The position numbers were made by a program, and so were the translations under genes. The notes beneath the pieces are model-generated. The model had not been told where the DNA came from. It saw only the letters and a list, made by a program, of their open reading frames with translations, and did not search any database. From the sequence record OK018184: DNA of 64,000 nucleotides; one strand, written 5' to 3'. Shown here piece after piece: positions 2,294 to 22,214 of this stretch. Source of the DNA: Shigella phage CT01. The first letter of the stretch is position 1, and every line of letters begins with the position of its first letter.

Positions 2294-2572
2294 TCAAAAT
2301 GTAATTTCTAACCAATCACCATCACGTTGATCACTATTGACTTTAAAGCTAAATCCTTCTTTTCTCAGCCAATCACCAATTTCTTCAGTAATCAATTTAT
2401 CGCGAGCGGTACAATAATAACTAAAATATGTTTTACCTTGTTCAGCTGCTTTATTAGCAAGTTCCGAAAAATCTTTAATAAAACACTCTAGTTTAAACTG
2501 TTTACTTTTAAGTGCTTTTTCGCGTAATTGATTAGCAAAAGATTCATTTTCATAAAGATCATACTGTTCCAT
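2294..2572 (-). CDS. hypothetical protein at the T4 24.2 position
   Basis: 92-aa ORF tightly packed after rnlB on the same strand. Confidence 0.55.
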   Translation of the reverse strand: MEQYDLYENESFANQLREKALKSKQFKLECFIKDFSELANKAAEQGKTYFSYYCTARDKLITEEIGDWLRKEGFSFKVNSDQRDGDWLEITF

Positions 2573-2774
2573 TTTTCACCTTTTTATTAATATGTCTTTT
2601 TCTATAGACAACTTTTTCTCGAGTCTCAAATTTATTCTTAGCAGTCATAGCTCGAGCCCACAATACAGCCACTTCTTTCGCCTGTAAGTTCAATTCACGA
2701 GCAATTTCAATGAATGACTTTCCAGACTCATGAAGAGTAAACACCACAACCTCAGTTCTCATAATCAATCTCAT
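2559..2774 (-). CDS. hypothetical small protein at the T4 24.3 position
   Basis: 71-aa ORF with 14-bp overlap to the downstream gene. Confidence 0.5.
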   Translation of the reverse strand: MRLIMRTEVVVFTLHESGKSFIEIARELNLQAKEVAVLWARAMTAKNKFETREKVVYRKRHINKKVKNGTV

Positions 2775-2840
2775 GTTATCGAGTTGGTGACATTATATAC
2801 ATCGTTTTCTGATTGTGTTTTGTGTGCTTTCAAAATGAAG

Positions 2841-2860
2841 AAAGGGGCCGAAGCCCCTTA
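2841..2860 (-). terminator. hairpin ggggc-cgaa-gcccc downstream of hoc
   Basis: Inverted repeat with A-run on plus strand (T-run on minus). Confidence 0.45.
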
Positions 2861-2863
2861 TGA

Positions 2864-3994
2864 TTATGGATAGGTATAGATGATACCAGTTTCTAAAGCA
2901 GTTTTATGAATGATGTATCCATTGCGCGATTCTTGAACATCAACTTCTGGATAGTCTTTCATCATCTTCTGAAGAGTGTAACGATGCAAGTAGTACTTAC
3001 TATCTGGGTCGTCAGTTTTCCAATCTTTACCTTCTTCAGTCATTTTTTGGATTTCATCCATAACCCACCAACCACACCAGATGTAAGCTGAAGTGCGATG
3101 TGGAAGAGGATGAACATAAGGTAATTCACCTTCTGGTTCCGGAGCAACTTTATCAGTTACCTGAACTTGACCTTCTGCTGTAATAGTTTTGCTATCATAA
3201 TCAGTAGCGGTAACAGTTGCAGTAACTTCAATAGTTTGACTTCCAATAGATGATGTATCAACGGTGTATACATTAGTTGACCCTTCTACTGGAGAAGAAT
3301 CTTTCTTCCATGAATATTCAATTTGCGCTTCTTCTGGAGCATCAGTGACATTAGCAGTAAATGTAGCTGAAGCATCTTGTTGAACGTTAATAGAAGGAGG
3401 AGTCAATGTAACCTGTGGATTCATTGTCTTCTTATTAACTGTTAATGATACTTCATTAGAAGTAACTTCCTTTGCATCATAATCAGCCGCGGTTACTTGA
3501 GCTACACACTTAATTGTTTTAACTCCGCTTGCATCAGGAGTGTAATTGAATGTAGCAGAAGTTGCTTCGCTTACAGGAGAACCGTCAACGTACCATTGAT
3601 ACGTAGCAGATGCACCTGATGGCTGTGAAGCTAAGGCAGCGGTAAATTCAATTGGAGTTCCAATCACTCCAGCATCAGGGCTACCAGGAGTTACAGCTAA
3701 GGTAGTTGTCTGTGTCTTATTTTGAACTGTGATAGTTGTACTAATTTCAGCTGTTTCAACTTCAGCTTCTGGAACTGTATTTGTTGCAACGACTTTAATA
3801 GTCTTTTGACCGGCAGGTCCTTTTAATACATAATCAAAAGTTGCGGCTGATCCTTCTTGTGGAGCATTATCTACACTCCAAGCATAGGTAATAGTTCCAC
3901 CTCCAGTTTCACCACTGGGTGTAGCAGTAAACTGCTGAGTCTGATCTATAACTCCAGTAGGTGTTTTAGGAGTTATATCAACTGTAAAAGCCAT
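2864..3994 (-). CDS. hoc: highly immunogenic outer capsid protein Hoc
   Basis: 376 aa, N-terminus MAFTVDITPKTPTGVIDQTQQFTATPSG matches recalled T4 Hoc; repeated Ig-like segments. Confidence 0.85.
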   Translation of the reverse strand: MAFTVDITPKTPTGVIDQTQQFTATPSGETGGGTITYAWSVDNAPQEGSAATFDYVLKGPAGQKTIKVVATNTVPEAEVETAEISTTITVQNKTQTTTLAVTPGSPDAGVIGTPIEFTAALASQPSGASATYQWYVDGSPVSEATSATFNYTPDASGVKTIKCVAQVTAADYDAKEVTSNEVSLTVNKKTMNPQVTLTPPSINVQQDASATFTANVTDAPEEAQIEYSWKKDSSPVEGSTNVYTVDTSSIGSQTIEVTATVTATDYDSKTITAEGQVQVTDKVAPEPEGELPYVHPLPHRTSAYIWCGWWVMDEIQKMTEEGKDWKTDDPDSKYYLHRYTLQKMMKDYPEVDVQESRNGYIIHKTALETGIIYTYP

Positions 3995-4003
3995 AAGTTA
4001 TCC

Positions 4004-4684
4004 TTATTTTAATGTTACGAAAGAAGAATTACGTGTTTCACGAATTAGAACTGATCCGTCACGGTTAATGTAGTAAATTAAGCTAAACAGAGTTTGATGT
4101 GCCGACGCGTGTTCAAAACTAGTTGGGTGAGATTTCCAATCCGGAGTTTCAGCAATCCATTGGTAAATCCACCAAGGAACAGTACAGAATCCTGGATTTT
4201 TTCCAATCAGCTGAAGATTCGGACTAAAGTTTTCCGGAAGAGTAAATACAGACGGCTTTTCAGATTCAATAATCTCAGCTACAGCCTGTTCGAATTTTTC
4301 TTCAACAAAAGGAGTATCTTCAATCAAAACATCGGTATTTTCAGGAATTTTATCCATTTCTACTACTTCAATTTTAATGTCAGATTTAACCGGAGAATCA
4401 ATCAGAAGTGCTGCTTCTGGATTGACTTCTTCATCGTCATATTTTAATCCCTCTGCAGCATCAGCAGCATTAATTAAGTCTTTAATAGATAACCCATCAG
4501 TCTCTGGCATAGGTTCACTAGCGAGCTTCTGGAGAGCTTCTTCAATATCATTAACGATATTATCAAAAGATTTATTCTTTTTGACCTTTATACCAAACTG
4601 TTCAGCATATTCAGCTAATTTAGCTTTAGCTTCTTTATTATCATCAAGAGCCTTCAGCTCTGCAATATAATCTTTATCTATCAT
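4004..4684 (-). CDS. inh: inhibitor of prohead protease Inh
   Basis: 226 aa, same length and position as T4 inh between hoc and uvsW. Confidence 0.7.
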   Translation of the reverse strand: MIDKDYIAELKALDDNKEAKAKLAEYAEQFGIKVKKNKSFDNIVNDIEEALQKLASEPMPETDGLSIKDLINAADAAEGLKYDDEEVNPEAALLIDSPVKSDIKIEVVEMDKIPENTDVLIEDTPFVEEKFEQAVAEIIESEKPSVFTLPENFSPNLQLIGKNPGFCTVPWWIYQWIAETPDWKSHPTSFEHASAHQTLFSLIYYINRDGSVLIRETRNSSFVTLK

Positions 4685-4697
4685 AATATTTCCTCAG

Positions 4698-4705
4698 TAT
4701 AAATA
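4698..4705 (+). promoter_or_regulatory. T4 late promoter core TATAAATA upstream of uvsW
   Basis: Exact TATAAATA about 30 nt upstream of the uvsW ATG. Confidence 0.5.
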
Positions 4706-4734
4706 TAGATATATTTATTACATGGTATTTAGAC

Positions 4735-6246
4735 ATGACTGACATTAAAGTACATTTTTATGATTTTAGTCACGTGAGAATTGATTGTGAAGAAAGTACA
4801 TTTCATGAACTCCGTGATTTCTTTAGCTTTGAAGCTGATGGGTATCGTTTTAATCCGAAGTACAAATATGGCCACTGGGATGGACGAATCCGTCTTTTAG
4901 ATTATAATCGTCTTCTTCCATTCGGCTTAGTCGGACAAATTAAAAAGTTCTGCGATAACTTTGGCTATAAAGCCTGGATTGACCCGCAAATTAACGAAAA
5001 AGAAGAATTATCAAGAAAAGATTTTGATGAATGGCTTTCTAAATTAGAAATCTATTCAGGAAATAAAAGAATTGAACCGCATTGGTATCAAAAAGATGCA
5101 GTGTTCGAAGGATTAGTTAATCGTCGTAGAATTCTTAATCTACCAACATCCGCAGGTAAATCTTTAATTCAAGCTTTGCTTGCACGTTATTATTTGGAAA
5201 ATTATGAAGGTAAAATTCTTATCATTGTTCCAACAACCGCTTTAACAACTCAGATGGCTGATGACTTTGTTGACTATCGTTTATTCAGTCATGCAATGAT
5301 AAAGAAAATTGGCGGTGGAGCATCAAAAGATGATAAATATAAAAATGATGCACCAGTCGTTGTTGGTACATGGCAAACTGTAGTAAAACAACCGAAAGAA
5401 TGGTTCTCACAGTTTGGAATGATGATGAATGATGAATGCCATCTTGCTACAGGAAAAAGTATTTCATCTATCATATCAGGTTTAAATAACTGCATGTTTA
5501 AATTCGGTCTATCAGGTTCATTACGTGATGGCAAAGCCAATATCATGCAGTATGTTGGAATGTTTGGTGAAATATTTAAGCCAGTAACGACTTCTAAATT
5601 AATGGAAGATGGACAAGTAACTGAGTTAAAAATTAATAGTATTTTTCTTCGCTATCCCGATGAGTTCACTACTAAATTAAAGGGAAAAACTTACCAAGAA
5701 GAAATAAAAATTATTACTGGGCTCAGTAAAAGAAATAAATGGATCGCTAAATTAGCTATTAAGCTTGCGCAAAAAGATGAAAACGCTTTTGTCATGTTTA
5801 AACACGTATCACACGGTAAAGCTATTTTCGATTTAATTAAAAATGAATACGATAAAGTTTATTACGTATCAGGGGAAGTTGATACCGAAACACGCAACGT
5901 AATGAAAACCCTAGCTGAAAACGGTAAAGGAATAATTATAGTAGCTAGTTATGGTGTATTTTCTACTGGTATTTCAGTTAAAAATCTGCATCACGTTATT
6001 TTAGCACACGGTGTTAAATCTAAAATTATTGTATTGCAAACAATAGGTCGCGTATTACGTAAGCATGGTTCTAAAACAATCGCAACAGTCTGGGACCTCA
6101 TAGATGATTGCGGTGTTAAGCCAAAATCTGCTAATACGAAAAAGAAATACGTTCATTTGAACTATCTTTTAAAACACGGCATTGATCGTATTCAGCGCTA
6201 CGCAGATGAAAAATTTAATTACGTAATGAAAACAGTTAATTTATAA
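4735..6246 (+). CDS. uvsW: UvsW DNA/RNA helicase
   Basis: 503 aa; Walker A PTSAGKS and DECH box; matches recalled T4 UvsW. Confidence 0.9.
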   Translation: MTDIKVHFYDFSHVRIDCEESTFHELRDFFSFEADGYRFNPKYKYGHWDGRIRLLDYNRLLPFGLVGQIKKFCDNFGYKAWIDPQINEKEELSRKDFDEWLSKLEIYSGNKRIEPHWYQKDAVFEGLVNRRRILNLPTSAGKSLIQALLARYYLENYEGKILIIVPTTALTTQMADDFVDYRLFSHAMIKKIGGGASKDDKYKNDAPVVVGTWQTVVKQPKEWFSQFGMMMNDECHLATGKSISSIISGLNNCMFKFGLSGSLRDGKANIMQYVGMFGEIFKPVTTSKLMEDGQVTELKINSIFLRYPDEFTTKLKGKTYQEEIKIITGLSKRNKWIAKLAIKLAQKDENAFVMFKHVSHGKAIFDLIKNEYDKVYYVSGEVDTETRNVMKTLAENGKGIIIVASYGVFSTGISVKNLHHVILAHGVKSKIIVLQTIGRVLRKHGSKTIATVWDLIDDCGVKPKSANTKKKYVHLNYLLKHGIDRIQRYADEKFNYVMKTVNL

Positions 6247-6258
6247 GGGCTTCGGCCC
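6247..6258 (+). terminator. hairpin gggc-ttcg-gccc after uvsW
   Basis: UUCG-type tetraloop stem immediately after the stop codon. Confidence 0.4.
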
Positions 6259-6259
6259 T

Positions 6260-6502
6260 TTGGAGAAAAAGATGTTACTAGAATTTAAACAATTTCTTTA
6301 TGAAGCTTCTATTGATGAATTTATGGGTAAAATTGCCTCTTGTCAAACATTAGAAGGTCTAGAAGAACTTGAAGCTTATTATAAGAAAAGAGTTAAAGAA
6401 ACTGAATTAAAAGATACTGATGACATCTCTGTGAGAGATGCTTTGGCAGGAAAAAGAGCTGAATTAGAAGATTCAGACGATGAAGTAGAAGAAAGCTTTT
6501 AA
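6260..6502 (+). CDS. small acidic protein at the uvsW.1 position
   Basis: 80-aa ORF directly downstream of uvsW. Confidence 0.6.
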   Translation: MEKKMLLEFKQFLYEASIDEFMGKIASCQTLEGLEELEAYYKKRVKETELKDTDDISVRDALAGKRAELEDSDDEVEESF

Positions 6503-14784: not shown

Positions 14785-14788
14785 CAAT

Positions 14789-14820
14789 GGGGACCGAAAG
14801 GTCCCCATATTTTTATTTAC
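14789..14820. terminator. hairpin ggggacc-gaaa-ggtcccc plus T-run between gene 54 and the alt block
   Basis: Perfect 7-bp stem, GAAA loop, followed by atatttttattt. Confidence 0.6.
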
Positions 14821-15103
14821 GGAATGAAATAAAAGCAGCAACTGAAGCAACTAAACTGTCTTCAATATAAACTTCAATTTTTACCGGAGCTTCTGACTCA
14901 AATTTACCTGTTACTACACCTTGGAAAATGCTTTCAGTCTGTTCTGGCTTTGAAAAATTTTCAGAAGGAAAAATTCCGAACTTTTTATCTGTTCCAAAAA
15001 TTTTGATAAATTCATCGTAAACTGCTTCATTAAAAGCGTTATCAGCAGGAATAACGCCTTCAACTACGAGTTCTTGACCTAAAAAGCGTAAAGAAGATTT
15101 CAT
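14813..15103 (-). CDS. hypothetical protein at the alt.-3 position
   Basis: 96-aa ORF downstream of the alt paralogues. Confidence 0.55.
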   Translation of the reverse strand: MKSSLRFLGQELVVEGVIPADNAFNEAVYDEFIKIFGTDKKFGIFPSENFSKPEQTESIFQGVVTGKFESEAPVKIEVYIEDSLVASVAAFISFRK

Positions 15104-15163
15104 TTTGTGTTCCTCATGTTATGTCAGTAAAATTATTATAACACAACACGAGGGACTTGTAAA

Positions 15164-17221
15164 CTACATTTTGAACTTTTTAGACATTTCGTTGATGTTA
15201 ACCAAAGAAGCCAAGATTTGAGAAACTTCGTTTTCCTCTTCTTTTGATTCTTCTACAAGGAATTGATTAAATCCAGCCATTGGACGAACTTCACCAGTTT
15301 CCATCAGGTGGTCGCCATCATATACCGATTCTTCTAATTGTTCAGAAGGAGGAACGATTGTGCCTTCGATTAGATACTTGTTATAAGCAGTTTCTTTCAT
15401 CATGTACGTACTCACTTTATTAATCTTCAGTAAAATTCCACGTGGTAAAATAACTTCAGCTTCTGATGGAAATCCTGATAAATGACCCGGAACGATAACT
15501 TTGATTCGCTCAGCTCCTTTAATTACCATACCCACGCTAGTTTCAGCATCTTCATTCGCATAAGCAGAGTGACTGCCCATATGCATTAAATCTTCAGCAT
15601 CAACTGAACCTTCTCCTTCACCAGAAAATACTGCACCAGAATCATCTAGAGCCATATAGTTTTTACCATACTCACCGAAGATATTTGGTTTAAGCGATGT
15701 GGATACGAAGTTCTTGAAATAGAACATTTTATTTTCAATATTATGACGTAAAGTTTTAAAGGTAACTTCTTGTCCACGGTAAAGTGTAGTTCCTGGAGGA
15801 AGAACTGATCCTTTGGCAAAGGCAGAATCCATTGTCTCGATGTGTTTAATAGCTCGTTCCATGTATTCTTCACGTGTAGAATCTGGTTTACCTAAAAGGA
15901 ACGAGTTCATTTCAACATATGAATCTGCACAATAATCTTCAATTACATCAGACTCAGCCTGAGTTAATCCTTTTGGAGTTACTTCAGTACTTGCATATTC
16001 ATACGCTTGAGAAGCAGACTCATTAATCAATTTATAAATGCCATTCATGACAAATTGAATAATAGCTACCTTTTCATCTGGCGTGGCTTTAGAACCTTTA
16101 ACTAAATCATTGACAATTTTCTTAATAACATCAAAACTATTAGAAATATTAATGTCAGCAAGATCGCTTAAAATTTTATCGGTTTTATAATCAAAAAATT
16201 CTTTATTCTTTAAATATTCTTGAGAACCTTGATATGTTATATCGCTCTGTAACTTGATAGATGGATCACGTAAACGTGCATGAGCCAATGCAATATGATT
16301 TCGGAAGCTTTCTAGTTCATAATCACTAGATTTAAAACGAGAAGCACTTCTCATACCACCGATAGCTCCTTTGCTGAAGTTTGAACCAACCTGAATAACG
16401 CCGGAGTTCATTGGTCCTTCTGCTTTATATACCGGAACTTTAGATTCAAACTCTTGATATTTCTTAGCAGCGAAGCTATCACCCTGAAGTGAAGCATCGA
16501 CAGTAGAGTATTGAGCTTGTGCTGCTAATCGACGACTAATTTTAGTTTTCTGAATAACAGCTTGATCCGTGCGCTTATCATTTTCTAAAGCAATAGAAGC
16601 AGCAACAGCAACAGCTTTAGGAACAGCATTGCCTGTTTTAACATCTACATAAACATCACCAACCTTTGATTCAACTTTTGTGAATAACTCAGTTGAAATA
16701 GGAGGTACACCTGGAATGTCTTCTAAATTGGCATTTTTACGGTAAACCATAATATATGCATATTTCTTATCATAGTCCCAGATTTCTTTTAAAAGAACAT
16801 ATCGACCTGCTCCTTTAGTACGTACTAAACGGTCGGCAATAACCTGCATTTGACGAGCTGCGCCATTTGTTTTACTTTTTAGTACGCGGAATAAGCATGC
16901 GTCAATTTTATACTGTTTCATTGTTTGAAGAGCAGTATCAAAAACGGCATTAATGACACCAATTGGATTTCCACCCAAGTTTTTAAGTTTAACTAATGAT
17001 AGTTTCTCATTAACACCTATCATTACGATATGCATCATTTTATCGCCTGGCTTAACATTTTTATTTGTATCACCACCAGAGGTGTATGTACAAAATCTAA
17101 ATCCAGGAAGCACACTTTCTTCGCCTGCTTGAATAGCAAAAATTTGAGGTATTTTATGCTTCGGATTTAAGTTAACAACCGGCGCTTCGGCGCCGTCAAA
17201 TAATTCTGTAATAAGTTCCAT
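15164..17221 (-). CDS. Alt-family ADP-ribosyltransferase paralogue (internal head protein)
   Basis: 685 aa; N-terminus MELITELFD almost identical to Alt; R (LYRGQ), STS (FVSTSL) and ExE (EAEVILPRG) motifs present. Confidence 0.75.
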   Translation of the reverse strand: MELITELFDGAEAPVVNLNPKHKIPQIFAIQAGEESVLPGFRFCTYTSGGDTNKNVKPGDKMMHIVMIGVNEKLSLVKLKNLGGNPIGVINAVFDTALQTMKQYKIDACLFRVLKSKTNGAARQMQVIADRLVRTKGAGRYVLLKEIWDYDKKYAYIMVYRKNANLEDIPGVPPISTELFTKVESKVGDVYVDVKTGNAVPKAVAVAASIALENDKRTDQAVIQKTKISRRLAAQAQYSTVDASLQGDSFAAKKYQEFESKVPVYKAEGPMNSGVIQVGSNFSKGAIGGMRSASRFKSSDYELESFRNHIALAHARLRDPSIKLQSDITYQGSQEYLKNKEFFDYKTDKILSDLADINISNSFDVIKKIVNDLVKGSKATPDEKVAIIQFVMNGIYKLINESASQAYEYASTEVTPKGLTQAESDVIEDYCADSYVEMNSFLLGKPDSTREEYMERAIKHIETMDSAFAKGSVLPPGTTLYRGQEVTFKTLRHNIENKMFYFKNFVSTSLKPNIFGEYGKNYMALDDSGAVFSGEGEGSVDAEDLMHMGSHSAYANEDAETSVGMVIKGAERIKVIVPGHLSGFPSEAEVILPRGILLKINKVSTYMMKETAYNKYLIEGTIVPPSEQLEESVYDGDHLMETGEVRPMAGFNQFLVEESKEEENEVSQILASLVNINEMSKKFKM

Positions 17222-17224
17222 GAT

Positions 17225-19321
17225 TTATCCTTGAACGAACTTGTAAGGCATGTTTGTAATATCTATGCAAGACGCAATAATTCCAAGAGATGATTCTACT
17301 TTCTGTTTAACGTTTGATGAAACAAATGATGCAAAGTCAACTCTGTCTTCTACTTCAATATCACCTGTCATTGCAACTACTTCGCCGGTTTCCATTAGAC
17401 GGTCACCGTCATAAATGACTGATTCGGTGAGTTCTTCCGTAGTCATAACTTCAGCTTGAATGAGTTTTGTATTATTAGATGTTGTTCCGTCATTATTAGA
17501 AGCATCAGTTATTTTATTAACTTTGACCATCAATCCGCGCGGTAGAATAACTTCAGCTTCAGTTGCTATTCCGAGACTTCCTGGATATACAACATTAACT
17601 TTATGAGCTCCATCAATTGCCCATCCTATTTGAACTTTAACGTATTCAGGATTTTCTTTATACGCTCTTATTTCGTTTGGATTAATAGTTATTCCTTCTT
17701 CATTTTTATCAACTGTTAATTCATTACGAGCTTCTGGTTCTAAAAGACCGATACCAGCATGTGTAATTCCAAAACGTCCAAAAATGATAGGAGTTAAAGA
17801 AGTAGATACAAAATTTCTGAAATAGAACACTTTATTTTTAACTAGCGCTTCGTATATAGGAGCAGTCATACTTTGAGCACGATAAACTGTAATGCCTTCT
17901 GGTATACGGTCACCATTTTCAAAAGCTGAATCTAAATTATTTATCGCAGATTCAATTTCTTTTTCACTCATTACATCATATCGTTCTGGATTGTAGCGGC
18001 CTAAAAGAAGATTATTGATGTCAGTATATCCTGATCCACAATACTCTCTAATGCCGCGCTTTTGCGATGGAGTATATTTAGAACCATCACGTGCAATGGT
18101 AATATCAATCATTGGACCTGCACCAATTCCAGAAAAACTATAAATCATTCGTTTGAGGAATTTAGTTTTTGCTGCGTTCCAGGAATTTTTAGTTATTTCT
18201 TCCCAGACTTCATCTGGCTGCCCTTTACGAGTTTTATTATGTTTATCAAGCCAATTATCTTTATATTCTTCAAAGAATTGATTAACAGCTGCTGCGTATT
18301 TCTCTAAACATTTTATTGAAGTAGTTGGTTCATTTTTAATCGCATTAAGAATTACATCTTTAATTTTTTCAGAAACTTCATTAACCTCACTTTTTGAAAA
18401 GAATTTATAGTCATAGTGAAGTTCATCTGCGGTTCCTTCGGCAATAATTTTTGCTGCCTTAGTTTTAGAAGCTAATGAATTAATTCCAAGCTTCATTTCT
18501 TCTGCTTCTGGAATTAAAGGAGCAGTAGCAGGTTTATTAAAATTAGCTGCGGTAGATTCATACTTCTGAAATAATTCACTTTCAAATCTAGAAGATTCTA
18601 ATGATTGACTTTGTGCAATTGCTCTACGGGAAATTTTAACTTTAACTATTACAGCTTGGTCAGAACGTTTATCATTTTCTTGCGCAATAGATGCTGCAAT
18701 TGCTTCATTTTTAGTTACTTGAGCTCCAGTATCTTTATTGATATAAACATCGCCGACCTTCGATTCAACTTTAGTAAAGAGCTCGGTACTAATTTCCGGA
18801 ACTCCTGGAATGTCTTCTAGTGATACATTTTTGCGATGTATAAGAATATATGCATACTTTTTATCATAATCCCAGAGTTCCTTAAGAAGGACGTATCTGC
18901 CACCTGAACGACTACGGATAAGTCTATCAGCAATAAGTTGAATTTGTCGAGCTTGACCAGCAGTTTTAGACTTAAGAATACGAAGCATGCAGGCATCAAT
19001 TTTATACTGACGCATCGTCTGCATTGCAACAGTAAAAACTGAATTGATATAATTAATTGGGCTTGGACCGAGACCTTTCAATTTAGCAATTGAACCTTTA
19101 GCAGTTAATGTAAAAGGAACAATGTGCATCATTTTATCGCCCATCTTTAGATCACGGTTAGTATCACCTCCAGATGTATAGGTACATAAACGAAAGCCTG
19201 GTTGTTCAATTGCGTCATCAACATGAACTGAAAAAATTTGCGGTATTTTCTTCTTTGGATTTAAGTTTGTAATCGGAAGAGTAGTATCTTCGTCAAATAA
19301 TTCTGTAATGAGTTCCATCAT
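17225..19321 (-). CDS. alt: Alt ADP-ribosyltransferase
   Basis: 698-aa ORF (MMELITELFDEDTTLPITNL...); R-STS-ExE motifs YRAQ / FVSTSL / EAEVILPRG; matches recalled T4 Alt. Confidence 0.85.
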   Translation of the reverse strand: MMELITELFDEDTTLPITNLNPKKKIPQIFSVHVDDAIEQPGFRLCTYTSGGDTNRDLKMGDKMMHIVPFTLTAKGSIAKLKGLGPSPINYINSVFTVAMQTMRQYKIDACMLRILKSKTAGQARQIQLIADRLIRSRSGGRYVLLKELWDYDKKYAYILIHRKNVSLEDIPGVPEISTELFTKVESKVGDVYINKDTGAQVTKNEAIAASIAQENDKRSDQAVIVKVKISRRAIAQSQSLESSRFESELFQKYESTAANFNKPATAPLIPEAEEMKLGINSLASKTKAAKIIAEGTADELHYDYKFFSKSEVNEVSEKIKDVILNAIKNEPTTSIKCLEKYAAAVNQFFEEYKDNWLDKHNKTRKGQPDEVWEEITKNSWNAAKTKFLKRMIYSFSGIGAGPMIDITIARDGSKYTPSQKRGIREYCGSGYTDINNLLLGRYNPERYDVMSEKEIESAINNLDSAFENGDRIPEGITVYRAQSMTAPIYEALVKNKVFYFRNFVSTSLTPIIFGRFGITHAGIGLLEPEARNELTVDKNEEGITINPNEIRAYKENPEYVKVQIGWAIDGAHKVNVVYPGSLGIATEAEVILPRGLMVKVNKITDASNNDGTTSNNTKLIQAEVMTTEELTESVIYDGDRLMETGEVVAMTGDIEVEDRVDFASFVSSNVKQKVESSLGIIASCIDITNMPYKFVQG

Positions 19322-19349
19322 ATCCTCTCTAGTGTTTATTCTATTTATA

Positions 19350-19374
19350 AAATTAAAGGCCCGAAGGCCTTTAA
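19350..19374 (-). terminator. hairpin aggcc-cgaa-ggcct with flanking T-run
   Basis: Inverted repeat between the 62-aa ORF and the alt start. Confidence 0.45.
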
Positions 19375-19559
19375 TAATCTAATGGTAAGAGAGTACGATA
19401 TATTTCAAACTTTGGCCCTTTTTCATAGGCATCAAATGTTTCTGTAAATTTATTATAAGCATATGCATCTACAAATTCGAGAATGACTTGTGATACAGAA
19501 GTAGAAACATCTCCACCTTCTTTTTGAGCTATAACAATTGTTTCTAAGTAAGCTTTCAT
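19371..19559 (-). CDS. hypothetical small protein
   Basis: 62-aa ORF overlapping the ligase stop. Confidence 0.5.
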   Translation of the reverse strand: MKAYLETIVIAQKEGGDVSTSVSQVILEFVDAYAYNKFTETFDAYEKGPKFEIYRTLLPLDY

Positions 19560-21016
19560 AGACCAGTTACCTCATGAAAATCACCAAATACATCCTCGAA
19601 TGTATTAGCTTTAGTTTTATCTTCACGTAAACGAATCGCAATCGGAAGAAATAATTTAACGTAATCAGTGCGGCCATCAGATTTTAACCAACCGTTGCAT
19701 TCGCACTCTAGAATTTTTCCAATATAATAATTTTGGTTTTCCATAATGCGAGTACGGTCAAGTTCATGTGATTTTACACCAGCTTTATCTTTTAAACCTG
19801 AACCAGCATTTACCTTAATTTTTCCACACTCTGATTCAAGAATAAATCCACCTGCTTTAGTAGGGTCTTTACGGTGAGGATAAATTCCTACAATTTTTAA
19901 ATCAACATCAATTACTTCTTTAAATTTATAGAGATTTTTTGAACGAGCATTTTCCCACAATCCATCGGTATTTTTGAGAATAATACCTTCAAGACCTCGG
20001 TCAATATATTTTTTATAAATTACCTTAGCTTCATCTAGGTTATTTACTACCTGGTTTTCAATTAAAATTACTTTATCATATCCTGATGTCATTTGTTCTA
20101 GTTTAGAAAAACGTACATCATATTTTAAACGAAACGCCGGAAGACCGTATATTTCTACCAACGGGACATAATCCCAGACCTGAAACTTCATACATTTGGC
20201 TTCTTTTTCTGAAATAGTTCCCTTTAAAGATTTATTGGCGATTCCATTAGAAGCAGTACGAGATTCAGCTACTTCAGCAAACTCTTTAACTTTACTATTT
20301 TCAGGAGAGTCAAAAAGAAAATCTAGGCCTTCTGGCTCCTTTTCAACTTGCTCATGGTATACCAATTCGCCATCAATTAACACACCTTCTGGATGAATCT
20401 GGCGGGCTTCAGCAGTCATTTTGATTAGATCTTCCTTAAGAAGATCTAATCCTAGATATTCATTACCAGCTCGCGATAAAAGACGAACATCATCTAATTC
20501 ATCGCCTCGGACTTCAGCAAAACACCGAGCTCCATCTGCTTTTAACTGCGCAAAAGCTGGAAACTTGATATTCTTACTAATGCCTTTTTCATCATAAGAA
20601 CTTGCCAGCATTTGAGGTTGTTCAGGAATTAAACCTGGCCAAACTTTGTTTGCAATAGATACTGAAGCACCACATTCAAGGTCTCGCATCATAACTCGAC
20701 GCAAAACTTCAACATCATCCTTTTTACCATCGGTGATATATCCAGTTAATTCCTCAATTGCTGCATTGCCAGTTAATTTCCGAGTAGCTAACGTGAATTC
20801 AATGAAGTCAAGCATATCGGTAATAGTCAGCATTCCAAAACTCTGGGTAGCAATACCAGGTTTAGGCCATTTCTTGATATAATACTGTAACCCACGAGAA
20901 TAAGTCAGACGATATACTCGTTTAAGCAATTCATTATCTTTATTCTTTTCAAGAATTGCTTGCTTCTGCTTAGTTGAACCAATAGATGCTATTTCATTTA
21001 GAATTTCAAGAATCAT
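19556..21016 (-). CDS. 30: ATP-dependent DNA ligase gp30
   Basis: 486 aa; adenylation lysine motif in QLKADGARCF; matches recalled T4 DNA ligase. Confidence 0.9.
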   Translation of the reverse strand: MILEILNEIASIGSTKQKQAILEKNKDNELLKRVYRLTYSRGLQYYIKKWPKPGIATQSFGMLTITDMLDFIEFTLATRKLTGNAAIEELTGYITDGKKDDVEVLRRVMMRDLECGASVSIANKVWPGLIPEQPQMLASSYDEKGISKNIKFPAFAQLKADGARCFAEVRGDELDDVRLLSRAGNEYLGLDLLKEDLIKMTAEARQIHPEGVLIDGELVYHEQVEKEPEGLDFLFDSPENSKVKEFAEVAESRTASNGIANKSLKGTISEKEAKCMKFQVWDYVPLVEIYGLPAFRLKYDVRFSKLEQMTSGYDKVILIENQVVNNLDEAKVIYKKYIDRGLEGIILKNTDGLWENARSKNLYKFKEVIDVDLKIVGIYPHRKDPTKAGGFILESECGKIKVNAGSGLKDKAGVKSHELDRTRIMENQNYYIGKILECECNGWLKSDGRTDYVKLFLPIAIRLREDKTKANTFEDVFGDFHEVTGL

Positions 21017-21282
21017 TGCTCATCCTTCAAGGTTTGGTTTACAGCTCTATTATAAATCAATTCATCATTAAGCTCAGGCAAAGACTTATGATATGTAGTT
21101 CTAACTTTATTTCCTTGCATCCAGTGCTTGACGTAAATGAAACCTTGCTCTACACATTTTTTAAAAATTCGTTCATCCTTTTGAGCACGGAACTCTGGAT
21201 TACATCTAAAAAATTGATTTACGTGACCGTAATCACGTGTAGTATTACCTTCATTTTCATAAATAGTATGAACAACAAACAT
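21013..21282 (-). CDS. hypothetical protein at the 30.1 position
   Basis: 89-aa ORF, ATGA-coupled. Confidence 0.55.
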   Translation of the reverse strand: MFVVHTIYENEGNTTRDYGHVNQFFRCNPEFRAQKDERIFKKCVEQGFIYVKHWMQGNKVRTTYHKSLPELNDELIYNRAVNQTLKDEQ

Positions 21283-22214
21283 TAGAATGCTCCTTGAAAA
21301 ATATTATCACCACTAGTAGGTCTATTATACAAATACTCTATGCCACCAGGTTTAATATAGTTCCATGTCTGAAACGGATGTGTCTGATATGGATGATATA
21401 GATGATTATTAGGTCTATTATACAAATACTCTATGCCACCAGGTTTAATATAGTTCCATGTCTGAAACGGATGTGTCTGATATGGATGATATAGATGATT
21501 ATAAGGATTTAATCCAGGCGTTCTCCAGGTAGTGTTCCAAGGAAAAGAATCGTTTTTAACCATCTTCTCAATTAAATCTTTTATAGCTTTTTCACTATCA
21601 AAACTTTCTTTATTTTCCTTCGGCGAAAAAAGCTTATTTTCTACATCATTCCATGTATAAACTCGCTGCGCAGTTTTTGGAATATTGTCACGCTCTCCTC
21701 GAGCCATCCAATAAACAGGAACATTTAATATTTCACTCGCATGATCGCAGTGATGAGCGAGATCGTCAATATAACAAATTACGTTATATTTCTCTTTTGC
21801 CTTTTTGAACAGCTCTTCTTTTGAAGAATCATGACCACACATCATTACTTCCGAGAAAGCACCAGGAAAAAGAGCATTCAAATTAAATTGACGATTCAAC
21901 AGAGCGTCAATAGAATCACCCAATGCTGTAACAGCTACAAAATTATAATCTTCTTTTAATTTGTTAATTACACACAGGGCATCTTTATACGGAGACAAGT
22001 AACGAATAAAATCTGAACGATTGTATTTTTCAATTAACTTGACGCCAAGTTCTTCGTCACAATTAAAGAGTTTACCCGGAGAAATAAATTTCTCATCTTG
22101 GATCATTTTTAAAATATGTTCTAATGGAAGATTATATTTCTGAGCAAAATAAGGAAGGCCTGATTGCCAGCTTAAACATACTCCATCAATATCAGTTAAA
22201 ATAGTTGGCTTCAT
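21282..22214 (-). CDS. HAD-like hydrolase-family protein (30.2 position) with in-frame 31-aa C-terminal duplication
   Basis: N-terminal DIDGV (DxDG) HAD motif; C-terminus repeats NHLYHPYQTHPFQTWNYIKPGGIEYLYNRP twice. Confidence 0.6.
   Translation of the reverse strand: MKPTILTDIDGVCLSWQSGLPYFAQKYNLPLEHILKMIQDEKFISPGKLFNCDEELGVKLIEKYNRSDFIRYLSPYKDALCVINKLKEDYNFVAVTALGDSIDALLNRQFNLNALFPGAFSEVMMCGHDSSKEELFKKAKEKYNVICYIDDLAHHCDHASEILNVPVYWMARGERDNIPKTAQRVYTWNDVENKLFSPKENKESFDSEKAIKDLIEKMVKNDSFPWNTTWRTPGLNPYNHLYHPYQTHPFQTWNYIKPGGIEYLYNRPNNHLYHPYQTHPFQTWNYIKPGGIEYLYNRPTSGDNIFQGAF
21317..21502. repeat. perfect 93-bp tandem duplication (2 copies) inside the 30.2 ORF
   Basis: 21317-21409 is identical to 21410-21502. 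Confidence 0.9.

Follow-up and report, generated by a model that had tools for sequence, protein, structure and literature searches.

A two-gene alt locus in Shigella phage CT01: tandem, probably injected ADP-ribosyltransferases with plausibly distinct host targets

Based on homology searches, family alignments, structure models and a comparison of alt loci, a two-gene alt locus was characterized in the window, that is, the whole 64,000-nucleotide stretch of Shigella phage CT01 DNA analyzed here (sequence record OK018184). Two head-to-tail open reading frames (ORFs) of 698 and 685 amino acids (aa) lie on the minus strand (17225-19321 and 15164-17221), 3 nt apart, and are designated gene B and gene A, respectively; the adjacent head-to-tail pair had been described in an earlier note on this DNA. 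In the reading that we consider probable, the locus is expressed as one late B-A transcript and encodes two ADP-ribosyltransferases (ARTs) that would be packaged, trimmed and injected into the host, where they would act on partly different targets. Such a tandem pair is what T-even phages normally carry as their alt region; its members are as follows.

17225..19321, minus strand: gene B, alt slot, T2/T6-type allele; 698 aa from the first ATG, stop codon at 17225-17227
15164..17221, minus strand: gene A, second Alt paralogue, 685 aa, intact; orthologue of JS98 altb

The window is a Tequatrovirus segment, and a 5-kb query across both genes shows 99.8% identity to Shigella phage SF2-1. The same query matched 545 phage records, in 387 of which the coverage was at least 80% and the tandem pair was present. 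The minus-strand order is gp30, alt.1, gene B, gene A and alt.-3, followed by the convergent baseplate genes gp54 and gp48, which is syntenic with the T4 order 30, alt.1, alt, alt.-1, alt.-2, alt.-3, 54; gene B therefore occupies the alt slot and gene A the alt.-1/alt.-2 slot. Translation of gene B probably begins at the second ATG (19318), giving a 697-aa protein (MELITELF...), because of the spacing from a GAGG Shine-Dalgarno sequence, the N-terminus of T4 Alt and the T2 and T6 annotations. Residues are numbered in the 697-aa form for gene B and in the 685-aa form (A685) for gene A.

The two proteins are full-length homologues of each other (BLASTP, 41% identity, 291/717, E = 6e-162). Both score above the curated gathering cut-off of 23.4 bits for the Pfam family PF03496, ADPrib_exo_Tox (A685, 73 bits, E = 2.6e-20; B, 129 bits, E = 1.9e-37), and both match phrog_802, "Alt-like RNA polymerase ADP-ribosyltransferase", over residues 1-685 of A (E = 1.6e-255) and 1-696 of B (E = 3.4e-272). 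The full-length phrog_802 match and the slot between 30/alt.1 and alt.-3/gp54 place A and B in the T4 Alt family, and the PF03496 score, the ordered R/S-T-S/E-x-E motifs and the predicted ART fold place them in the R-S-E clade of ADP-ribosyltransferases; the earlier assignment of both genes as Alt-family ARTs is thus borne out by the PF03496 and phrog_802 matches and the intact motifs. The catalytic triad was located at R482 (LYRGQ), S507-T-S509 (FVSTSL) and E587-A-E589 (EAEVILPRG) in A and at R480 (VYRAQ), S505-T-S507 and E587-A-E589 in B, as quoted in the earlier note. In a 64-sequence family alignment, the catalytic serine and both ExE glutamates are invariant and the arginine is conserved at 90% or more; the arginine and glutamate, whose possible loss had been raised, are retained in both A and B. 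The AlphaFold2 models of A and B resemble arginine-specific R-S-E ARTs. Both proteins look catalytically competent in their sequences and models, and NAD+-dependent ADP-ribosyl transfer to arginine may be inferred for both from the E-x-E motif and the analogy with T4 Alt. No structure of an Alt protein has been solved; a phmmer search for one gave nothing for A and weak CdtA/iota matches for B (E ~4e-4).

The domains of the two proteins are as follows.

16508..17221, minus strand: A685 N-terminal domain, aa 1-238; alpha/beta fold in the model, with the gp21-type cleavage motif ITE-6 included
15986..16507, minus strand: A685 middle region, aa 239-412; modelled as entirely helical, ~15% identity to B and 45% to JS98 altb
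15338..15985, minus strand: A685 ART catalytic domain, aa 413-628
15776-15778 (R482), 15695-15703 (S507-T-S509), 15461-15463 (E587) and 15455-15457 (E589), minus strand: A685 catalytic codons
15167..15328, minus strand: A685 predicted C-terminal propeptide, aa 632-685 (54 aa), acidic, pI 4.5, past LEE-631
18602..19318, minus strand: gene B N-terminal domain, aa 1-239; 99% identity to T4 Alt, 67.5% to A685
17354..18598, minus strand: gene B cassette that diverges from T4 alt, aa ~241-655; comprises the helical middle and the ART core, with R480, S505-T-S507 and E587-A-E589
17228..17422, minus strand: gene B predicted C-terminal propeptide, aa 633-697 (65 aa), pI 4.2, past LTE-632

T4 Alt is a prohead-core protein, with ~40 copies in each head, that is ejected together with the DNA (PMC9026906), and it is cut by the prohead protease gp21 at ITE-6 and LTE-619 to yield a mature form of 68.2 kDa (PMC5694885). 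When T4 alt was translated for this analysis, both published cleavage sites and the mature mass of 68.2 kDa were recovered. In the alignment with T4 Alt, the gp21-type motif ITE-6 is found in both A and B, and LEE-631 of A and LTE-632 of B correspond to LTE-619; the cleavage-site glutamates E6 and E631 are invariant in the family alignment. The predicted mature proteins comprise 625 aa and 69.1 kDa (A) and 626 aa and 70.2 kDa (B), and the released C-terminal tails would be acidic. The model pLDDT falls below 50 at residues 629-632 of A685 and over residues 631-676 of B. With their MELITE N-terminus and aligned L-x-E site, both proteins look as if they are packaged and processed like T4 Alt. 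The earlier description of the N-terminal third as the processing region of T4 Alt holds for ITE-6, which lies within it, and fails for LTE-619, which is also cut and is near the C-terminus. For its description as the capsid-targeting region, no such mapping was found in the literature consulted.

The N-terminal third of A and B had also been called almost identical; its protein identity is 67.5% (160/237), with DNA identity of 58-76% and saturated synonymous divergence (dS 1.68), and the near-identical N-terminal pair is gene B and T4 Alt (236/238). The reported divergence past residue ~240 was confirmed, with identities between A and B of ~15% in the middle region and ~32-35% in the ART core, variability being greatest in the helical middle region and between the S-T-S and E-x-E motifs. 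In neighbor-joining trees with bootstrap built from alt loci of eight genera, the ART plus C-tail portion of A groups with JS98 altb (100%) and that of B with T4 alt, JS98 alta and RB69 alt (100%); RB69 retains the B type only. From the orthology of A with altb (identities of 45% in the middle, 55% in the ART core and 61% in the C-tail) and of B with alta, it follows that the duplication predates the Tequatrovirus/Dhakavirus split. The middle region and the S-T-S/E-x-E segment are nearly unrelated between A and B and conserved among the orthologues of each, which argues for partly different targets; distinct host targets for A and B are therefore plausible from their sequences.

Correspondence of gene A to the T4 pseudogene fragments alt.-1/alt.-2 had been named in the earlier note as evidence that would speak against its reading. 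Gene A does lie in exactly that slot, but the window ORF is intact over 685 codons and carries neither of the T4 lesions. The T4 alt.-1/alt.-2/alt.-3 DNA matches the window with near-identity to gene A, base for base, apart from two lesions in T4, namely a frameshift caused by a 1-bp deletion within a run of A residues close to codon 54, and the absence of 1,699 bp between two 9-bp repeats CTAAAAAGT, of which one copy was kept. In the window, both copies of the repeat are present.

16874..16882, minus strand: CTAAAAAGT upstream copy, codon 114 of gene A, left endpoint of the T4 deletion
15175..15183, minus strand: CTAAAAAGT downstream copy, codon 680 of gene A, right endpoint of the T4 deletion

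The T4 fragments are accordingly collinear with and near-identical to gene A over its first 348 nt and last ~20 nt, and are broken by the 1-bp and 1,699-bp deletions, whereas gene A of the window is whole. Because T4 carries a deletion remnant and the window gene is intact, the correspondence supports a function of gene A. The T4 record annotates alt.-1/alt.-2 as "old duplication of the first part of gene alt"; as judged from the aligned sequences, they are the remnant of a full-length paralogue and not a partial duplication. A record of T6 (MH550421, locus 4302-6359) labels the intact 685-aa gene "hypothetical protein; apparent insertion in alt.-2", and the same alignment indicates that the polarity of this remark is reversed, as it is T4 that carries a deletion.

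A 201-bp probe over the T4 deletion junction was matched without interruption in 91 of 499 matching records, natural isolates included, and the remaining records gave split probe matches, as expected of an intact gene A. A tblastn search found gene A in 396 records at an identity of 95% or above and in almost none at 60-95%. T2 and T6 possess intact A (97.8% and 97.7% identity, respectively) and B (98.6% and 99.1%) with all motifs present, and T4 is thus the exception among the classical T-evens in missing an intact gene A. Comparison of gene A with its orthologues in Ac3 and PYps15T gave 74-99 synonymous and 11-21 non-synonymous differences, corresponding to a dN/dS of 0.04-0.05 at a dS of 0.19-0.26 (0.04-0.05 in the ART core and 0.06-0.10 in the middle region). 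For gene B, the dN/dS is 0.055 at a dS of about 0.2 and is low in every region, as for A. These values indicate strong purifying selection on both genes. The catalytic and cleavage-site residues are intact in gene A of the window, T2, T6, Ac3 and PYps15T.

It is very improbable that gene A is a redundant duplicate in the course of being lost, with its ORF still open and no selected function. Its deletion in T4 and in the 91 of 499 records, the splitting of the second copy in CF1, its truncation in RB49 and AS-gz and the non-essential nature of alt itself in T4 (PMC9026906) would all suit such a duplicate, but a 685-codon ORF that 396 records keep intact at no less than 95% protein identity, catalytic and cleavage residues that are intact in the five phages named above, and an orthologue retained in a different genus (JS98 altb) would not, and the dN/dS of 0.04-0.05 brings the idea close to refutation. 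A decaying pseudogene was ruled out by this dN/dS and by conservation in ~400 genomes and across genera.

The signals found around the two genes bear on how they may be expressed.

19342..19349, minus strand: late promoter consensus TATAAATA, T4-type, ~20 nt upstream of gene B
~19355-19372, minus strand: hairpin AAAGGCCTTCGGGCCTTT ending alt.1, preceding the late promoter of gene B
17222..17232, minus strand: B/A junction, with the B stop codon TAA (17225-17227), the spacer ATC (17222-17224) and the A start codon ATG (17219-17221)
17228-17232, minus strand: gene A Shine-Dalgarno sequence AAGGA, within the 3' end of gene B

A second TATAAATA was looked for between genes B and A and none was seen, so that gene A most likely shares one late transcript with gene B.

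In the proposed mechanism, the late promoter upstream of gene B would drive a single transcript through B and then A. Each product, of ~76-78 kDa, consists of a family-specific alpha/beta N-terminal domain of ~238 aa, a helical middle region, an ART domain of the C3/VIP2/Vis-like R-S-ExE type and an acidic C-terminal tail. Both products could be built into the prohead core, as is T4 Alt, and gp21 may trim them after ITE-6 and after the L-x-E site near residue 631/632. Following ejection with the DNA, both proteins could mono-ADP-ribosylate arginines of host proteins in an NAD+-dependent manner at the start of infection, and A and B would most likely modify partly different sets of these proteins. 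Gene B is the T2/T6-type allele of alt and gene A an old paralogue, orthologous to JS98 altb, that T4 and about one fifth of its relatives have lost by deletion between the 9-bp repeats. The gene structure, homology, intact motifs, predicted fold, selection, orthology and T4 deletion are established by the sequence analysis; packaging, cleavage, injection and arginine specificity are suggested for A and B by analogy with T4 Alt, and distinct targets by the divergence of their sequences.

Several points weigh against this mechanism. The literature searched contains no direct evidence for the virion presence, cleavage or enzymatic activity of the gene A product, and neither virion proteomics detecting a second Alt paralogue nor a functional study of one was found in it. 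Gene A is dispensable in T4 and in the 91 of 499 records with the deletion junction, and the second alt slot has been repeatedly lost or eroded in other genera. Co-transcription of B and A is inferred solely from the missing promoter consensus between them. In addition, divergence of surface regions is no proof of different substrates and could reflect escape from host recognition.

In an alternative reading, A and B are two versions of one activity that share their targets (RNA polymerase alpha and others), the duplicate being kept for dosage or robustness and the divergence being driven by escape from host factors that recognize or inhibit an injected ART rather than by substrate change. T4 Alt is already very promiscuous, with at least 27 targets (PMC8120803), single-copy phages such as T4, RB69 and KPV15 are viable, and the presence of two deeply diverged cassette alleles in the alt slot of otherwise near-identical phages is an arms-race-like pattern. 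However, the variable regions are conserved among the orthologues of each paralogue (middle dN/dS 0.06-0.13), and A remains recognizable as altb across genera in its middle region and ART core, which points to a stable paralogue-specific function; a shared activity is therefore considered unlikely, and two enzymes with partly different targets are preferred.

The N-terminal domains have a history that differs from the catalytic portions. In the N-domain tree, the sequences group by genome, with A, B and T4 together (99%), altb, alta and RB69 together (100%) and the two Ac42 copies together (100%), and the A685 N-terminal domain has lineage-specific sequence in common with gene B. The within-genome excess of identity covers residues 1-188 and peaks at residues 99-158, where A and B share 73-77% as against 17-30% for A and altb; it vanishes over residues 189-243 and reverses after residue 243. 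Since the synonymous sites of the paralogous N-domains are saturated (dS 1.68), any homogenization must be ancient. Recent gene conversion between A and B was ruled out by this dS together with a longest identical DNA run of 18 nt.

Gene B, in turn, differs from T4 alt by what sequence comparison identifies as an ancient central cassette inside near-identical flanks. Their DNA is at least 93% identical up to residue ~240 and 98-100% identical past residue ~659; in between, identity falls to 33-78% (aa 241-598) and 76-87% (aa 599-655). The dS rises from 0.15 in the N-domain to 1.33 in the middle region and 1.18 in the ART core, before dropping to 0.35 in the C-tail. The within-genome excess of N-domain identity ends, and the B/T4 cassette begins, at the same junction, about residue 240. 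A tblastn comparison sorts the alt slot into two allele classes: ~316 records are at least 90% identical to B, and 212 records, of the T4 type, are 60-80% identical. PYps15T combines a T4-type alt allele with an intact gene A, and hence which alt allele a phage has is independent of whether it carries A.

Grouping of the N-domains by genome might instead arise from shared constraint, in which both copies adapt to the same prohead core or portal partners and neither conversion nor module exchange is involved. Co-evolution with a core partner particular to the lineage is a credible alternative, and the lack of a recent conversion tract, as seen from the dS and the 18-nt longest run, and the concentration of the contrast in aa 99-158, which suits an interaction surface, are in keeping with it. 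Shared constraint as the whole explanation is nevertheless doubtful, because the excess is large (68% vs 46%) and has arisen independently in three lineages (window, 68%; JS98, 65%; Ac42, 56%), and because its sharp end at ~aa 240, where the B/T4 cassette exchange begins, is better accounted for by recombination at a module junction.

A broader and tentative proposal is that the alt locus forms a two-slot effector-cassette system, in which a lineage-specific N-terminal delivery domain, with a fold possibly like that of GNAT (GCN5-related N-acetyltransferase) proteins, would be combined with exchanged ART "warheads" and gene A would be a fourth injected ART. The likeness of the N-domains of the tandem copies may go back to ancient conversion or to their co-evolution with the prohead core, and swaps may have occurred at the junction near residue 240. 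Under this proposal, gene A may have host targets of its own, possibly in counter-defence, in T2 and T6, and is missing from laboratory T4. In a search of 1.84 billion representative proteins with the N-terminal domain alone, 69 representative clusters were found, with the domain always N-terminal in Alt-length proteins, nearly all of 600-712 aa, and the precomputed Pfam family PF26846, which represents this domain, is present on all Alt homologues. A local Pfam scan of the N-terminal and middle regions at E up to 5 gave sub-threshold noise only, including no Pfam match for the A685 middle region, NCBIfam gave no matches for either region, and a profile of the N-terminal domain had zero matches at E up to 10 among all PDB sequences.

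The N-terminal domain as a general delivery module for non-ART cargo was largely rejected, as PF03496 was detected in 56 of 60 carriers; the other four are two short fragments, one degenerate ART and one protein without a recognizable ART. The last two of these carriers are distant metagenomic proteins, namely P0235 (541 aa), which has no recognizable ART domain or motifs, and P0234 (485 aa), which has a degenerate ART with LYK for the Arg motif, TSCS and N-S-E. From their sequences, these proteins could carry rare alternative or inactivated cargo.

Among the closest known systems is T4 Alt (UniProt P12726), an injected NAD+:arginine mono-ADP-ribosyltransferase, which shares with gene B the slot, four-part architecture, length, MELITE N-terminus, LTE site and R/S-T-S/E-x-E motifs. 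The N-terminal 238 aa are 99% identical and the last ~40 aa at least 95% identical, in contrast to ~32% in the middle region and 66% in the ART core (70% overall); for gene A, the overall identity to T4 Alt is 42%. Strict orthology to T4 Alt in the sense of uniformly low divergence along the gene is thus seen for neither B nor A. T4 Alt is an R-S-E ART with at least 27 host targets, including R265 of RNA polymerase alpha and R84 of MazF (PMC8120803). Because the catalytic half of gene B is diverged (66% identity, dS ~1.2), these targets should not simply be carried over to either protein. The activity of T4 Alt is abolished by mutation of an ExE glutamate (PMC11404850). The dead mutant is published as E577A (PMC11404850), and the motif in NC_000866 is E574-M-E576 (T4 alt locus 3458-5503, minus strand), in whose numbering ITE-6 and LTE-619 fit exactly; E577A is read here as an ExE glutamate whose number in that paper seems shifted by one residue.

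Tandem Alt paralogues in the same slot are also found in the Dhakaviruses JS98 and JS10 (alta and altb), the N-domains of which depart from the A/altb and B/alta orthology. The record of Acinetobacter phage Ac42 carries the note "alt gene duplication", and tandem paralogues were listed for 44RR (ORF187c/188c) and RB49 (ORF183c) (Nolan et al. 2006, PMC1524935). In RB49 (locus 5540-6364) and AS-gz (locus 2541-3446), the second gene differs from gene A in being a short ART-only protein, of 274 aa downstream of alt in the former and, as an Alt-like gene upstream of the full-length copy, of 301 aa in the latter, and in Citrobacter phage CF1 (locus 3501-5623) the second slot is split into ORFs of 392 and 315 aa. 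Only one alt gene is present in RB69 and in KPV15.

The R-S-E toxins C3, VIP2, iota/CDTa, Vis and Certhrax differ from the Alt proteins in their identity (14-27%) and in relying on secretion or a binary partner instead of ejection from a phage capsid. The S-T-S to E-x-E spacing in the Alt proteins is ~77-79 residues, which is roughly twice that of C3 or iota toxin, and this segment is the most variable part of the ART domain. ModA and ModB are R-S-E ARTs of the same phage group that act on host transcription and translation proteins (PMC8120803); unlike A and B, they are ~200 aa long, early-expressed, not packaged and absent from the window. The alignment with T4 ModA and ModB suggested in the earlier note could not be made, as BLASTP gave E above 1 for all pairs, and membership of A or B in the ModA/ModB family was rejected for lack of detectable BLASTP similarity.

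The two-paralogue alt arrangement itself is already known and annotated in hundreds of records, often as two "Alt-like" genes in the matching phage records, and the suggestion of distinct targets is already in print: two Alt-like paralogues with 43.29% identity were described for 6phi13/SHFML-11, with expanded targets proposed (2026, PMC13600099). The present analysis adds the exact mechanism of the T4 deletion, the selection on gene A, the conservation of both processing sites, the domain-level phylogenetic incongruence and the cassette nature of the alt allele. In current and textbook accounts, T4 is credited with three ARTs (Alt, ModA and ModB). A fourth, which is intact, strongly conserved and apparently unstudied, is encoded by most natural T-even phages, among them T2 and T6. 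Furthermore, the T2/T6-type "Alt" is a different catalytic allele from the T4 enzyme behind all the biochemistry, and target results obtained with T4 Alt may not hold for Tequatroviruses used in therapy or found in the environment. The locus also offers a clean example of the modular evolution of an injected effector. If the two-slot proposal is true, gene A could be one source of the differences in host take-over or defence sensitivity between T4 and T2/T6.

The genes flanking the pair are as follows.

19556-21016, minus strand: DNA ligase gp30
19371-19559, minus strand: alt.1, 62 aa; Pfam Phage_blade PF24647 "Phage blade protein", E = 1.9e-29
14813-15103, minus strand: alt.-3, 96 aa, DUF5498, directly downstream of gene A

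The final codons of alt.1 overlap the start of the terminator hairpin that immediately precedes the alt late promoter. On the other side, alt.-3 has a strong sigma-70-like promoter of its own at 15135-15163 (minus strand), which begins just past the gene A stop codon and consists of TTTACA, a 17-nt spacer and TG-n-TATAAT, with 11 of 12 matches. A bidirectional terminator hairpin at 14787-14808 is common to alt.-3 and gp54. In T4, Alt.-3 mutants with a C-terminal extension escape the CmdTAC defence system (PMC11618068); Alt.-3 of the window has the wild-type length of 96 aa. Upstream of gp30, a 93-bp tandem duplication (21317-21506, minus strand; 2.0 copies, 98% match) sits at the 3' end of a 310-aa ORF (21282-22214, minus strand) in the position of T4 30.2 and doubles a 31-aa segment (...HLYHPYQTHPFQTWNYIKPGGIEYLYNRP...) close to the protein's C-terminal end. 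The T4 30.2 coding sequence measures 837 nt including the stop codon, compared with 310 aa for the window ORF.

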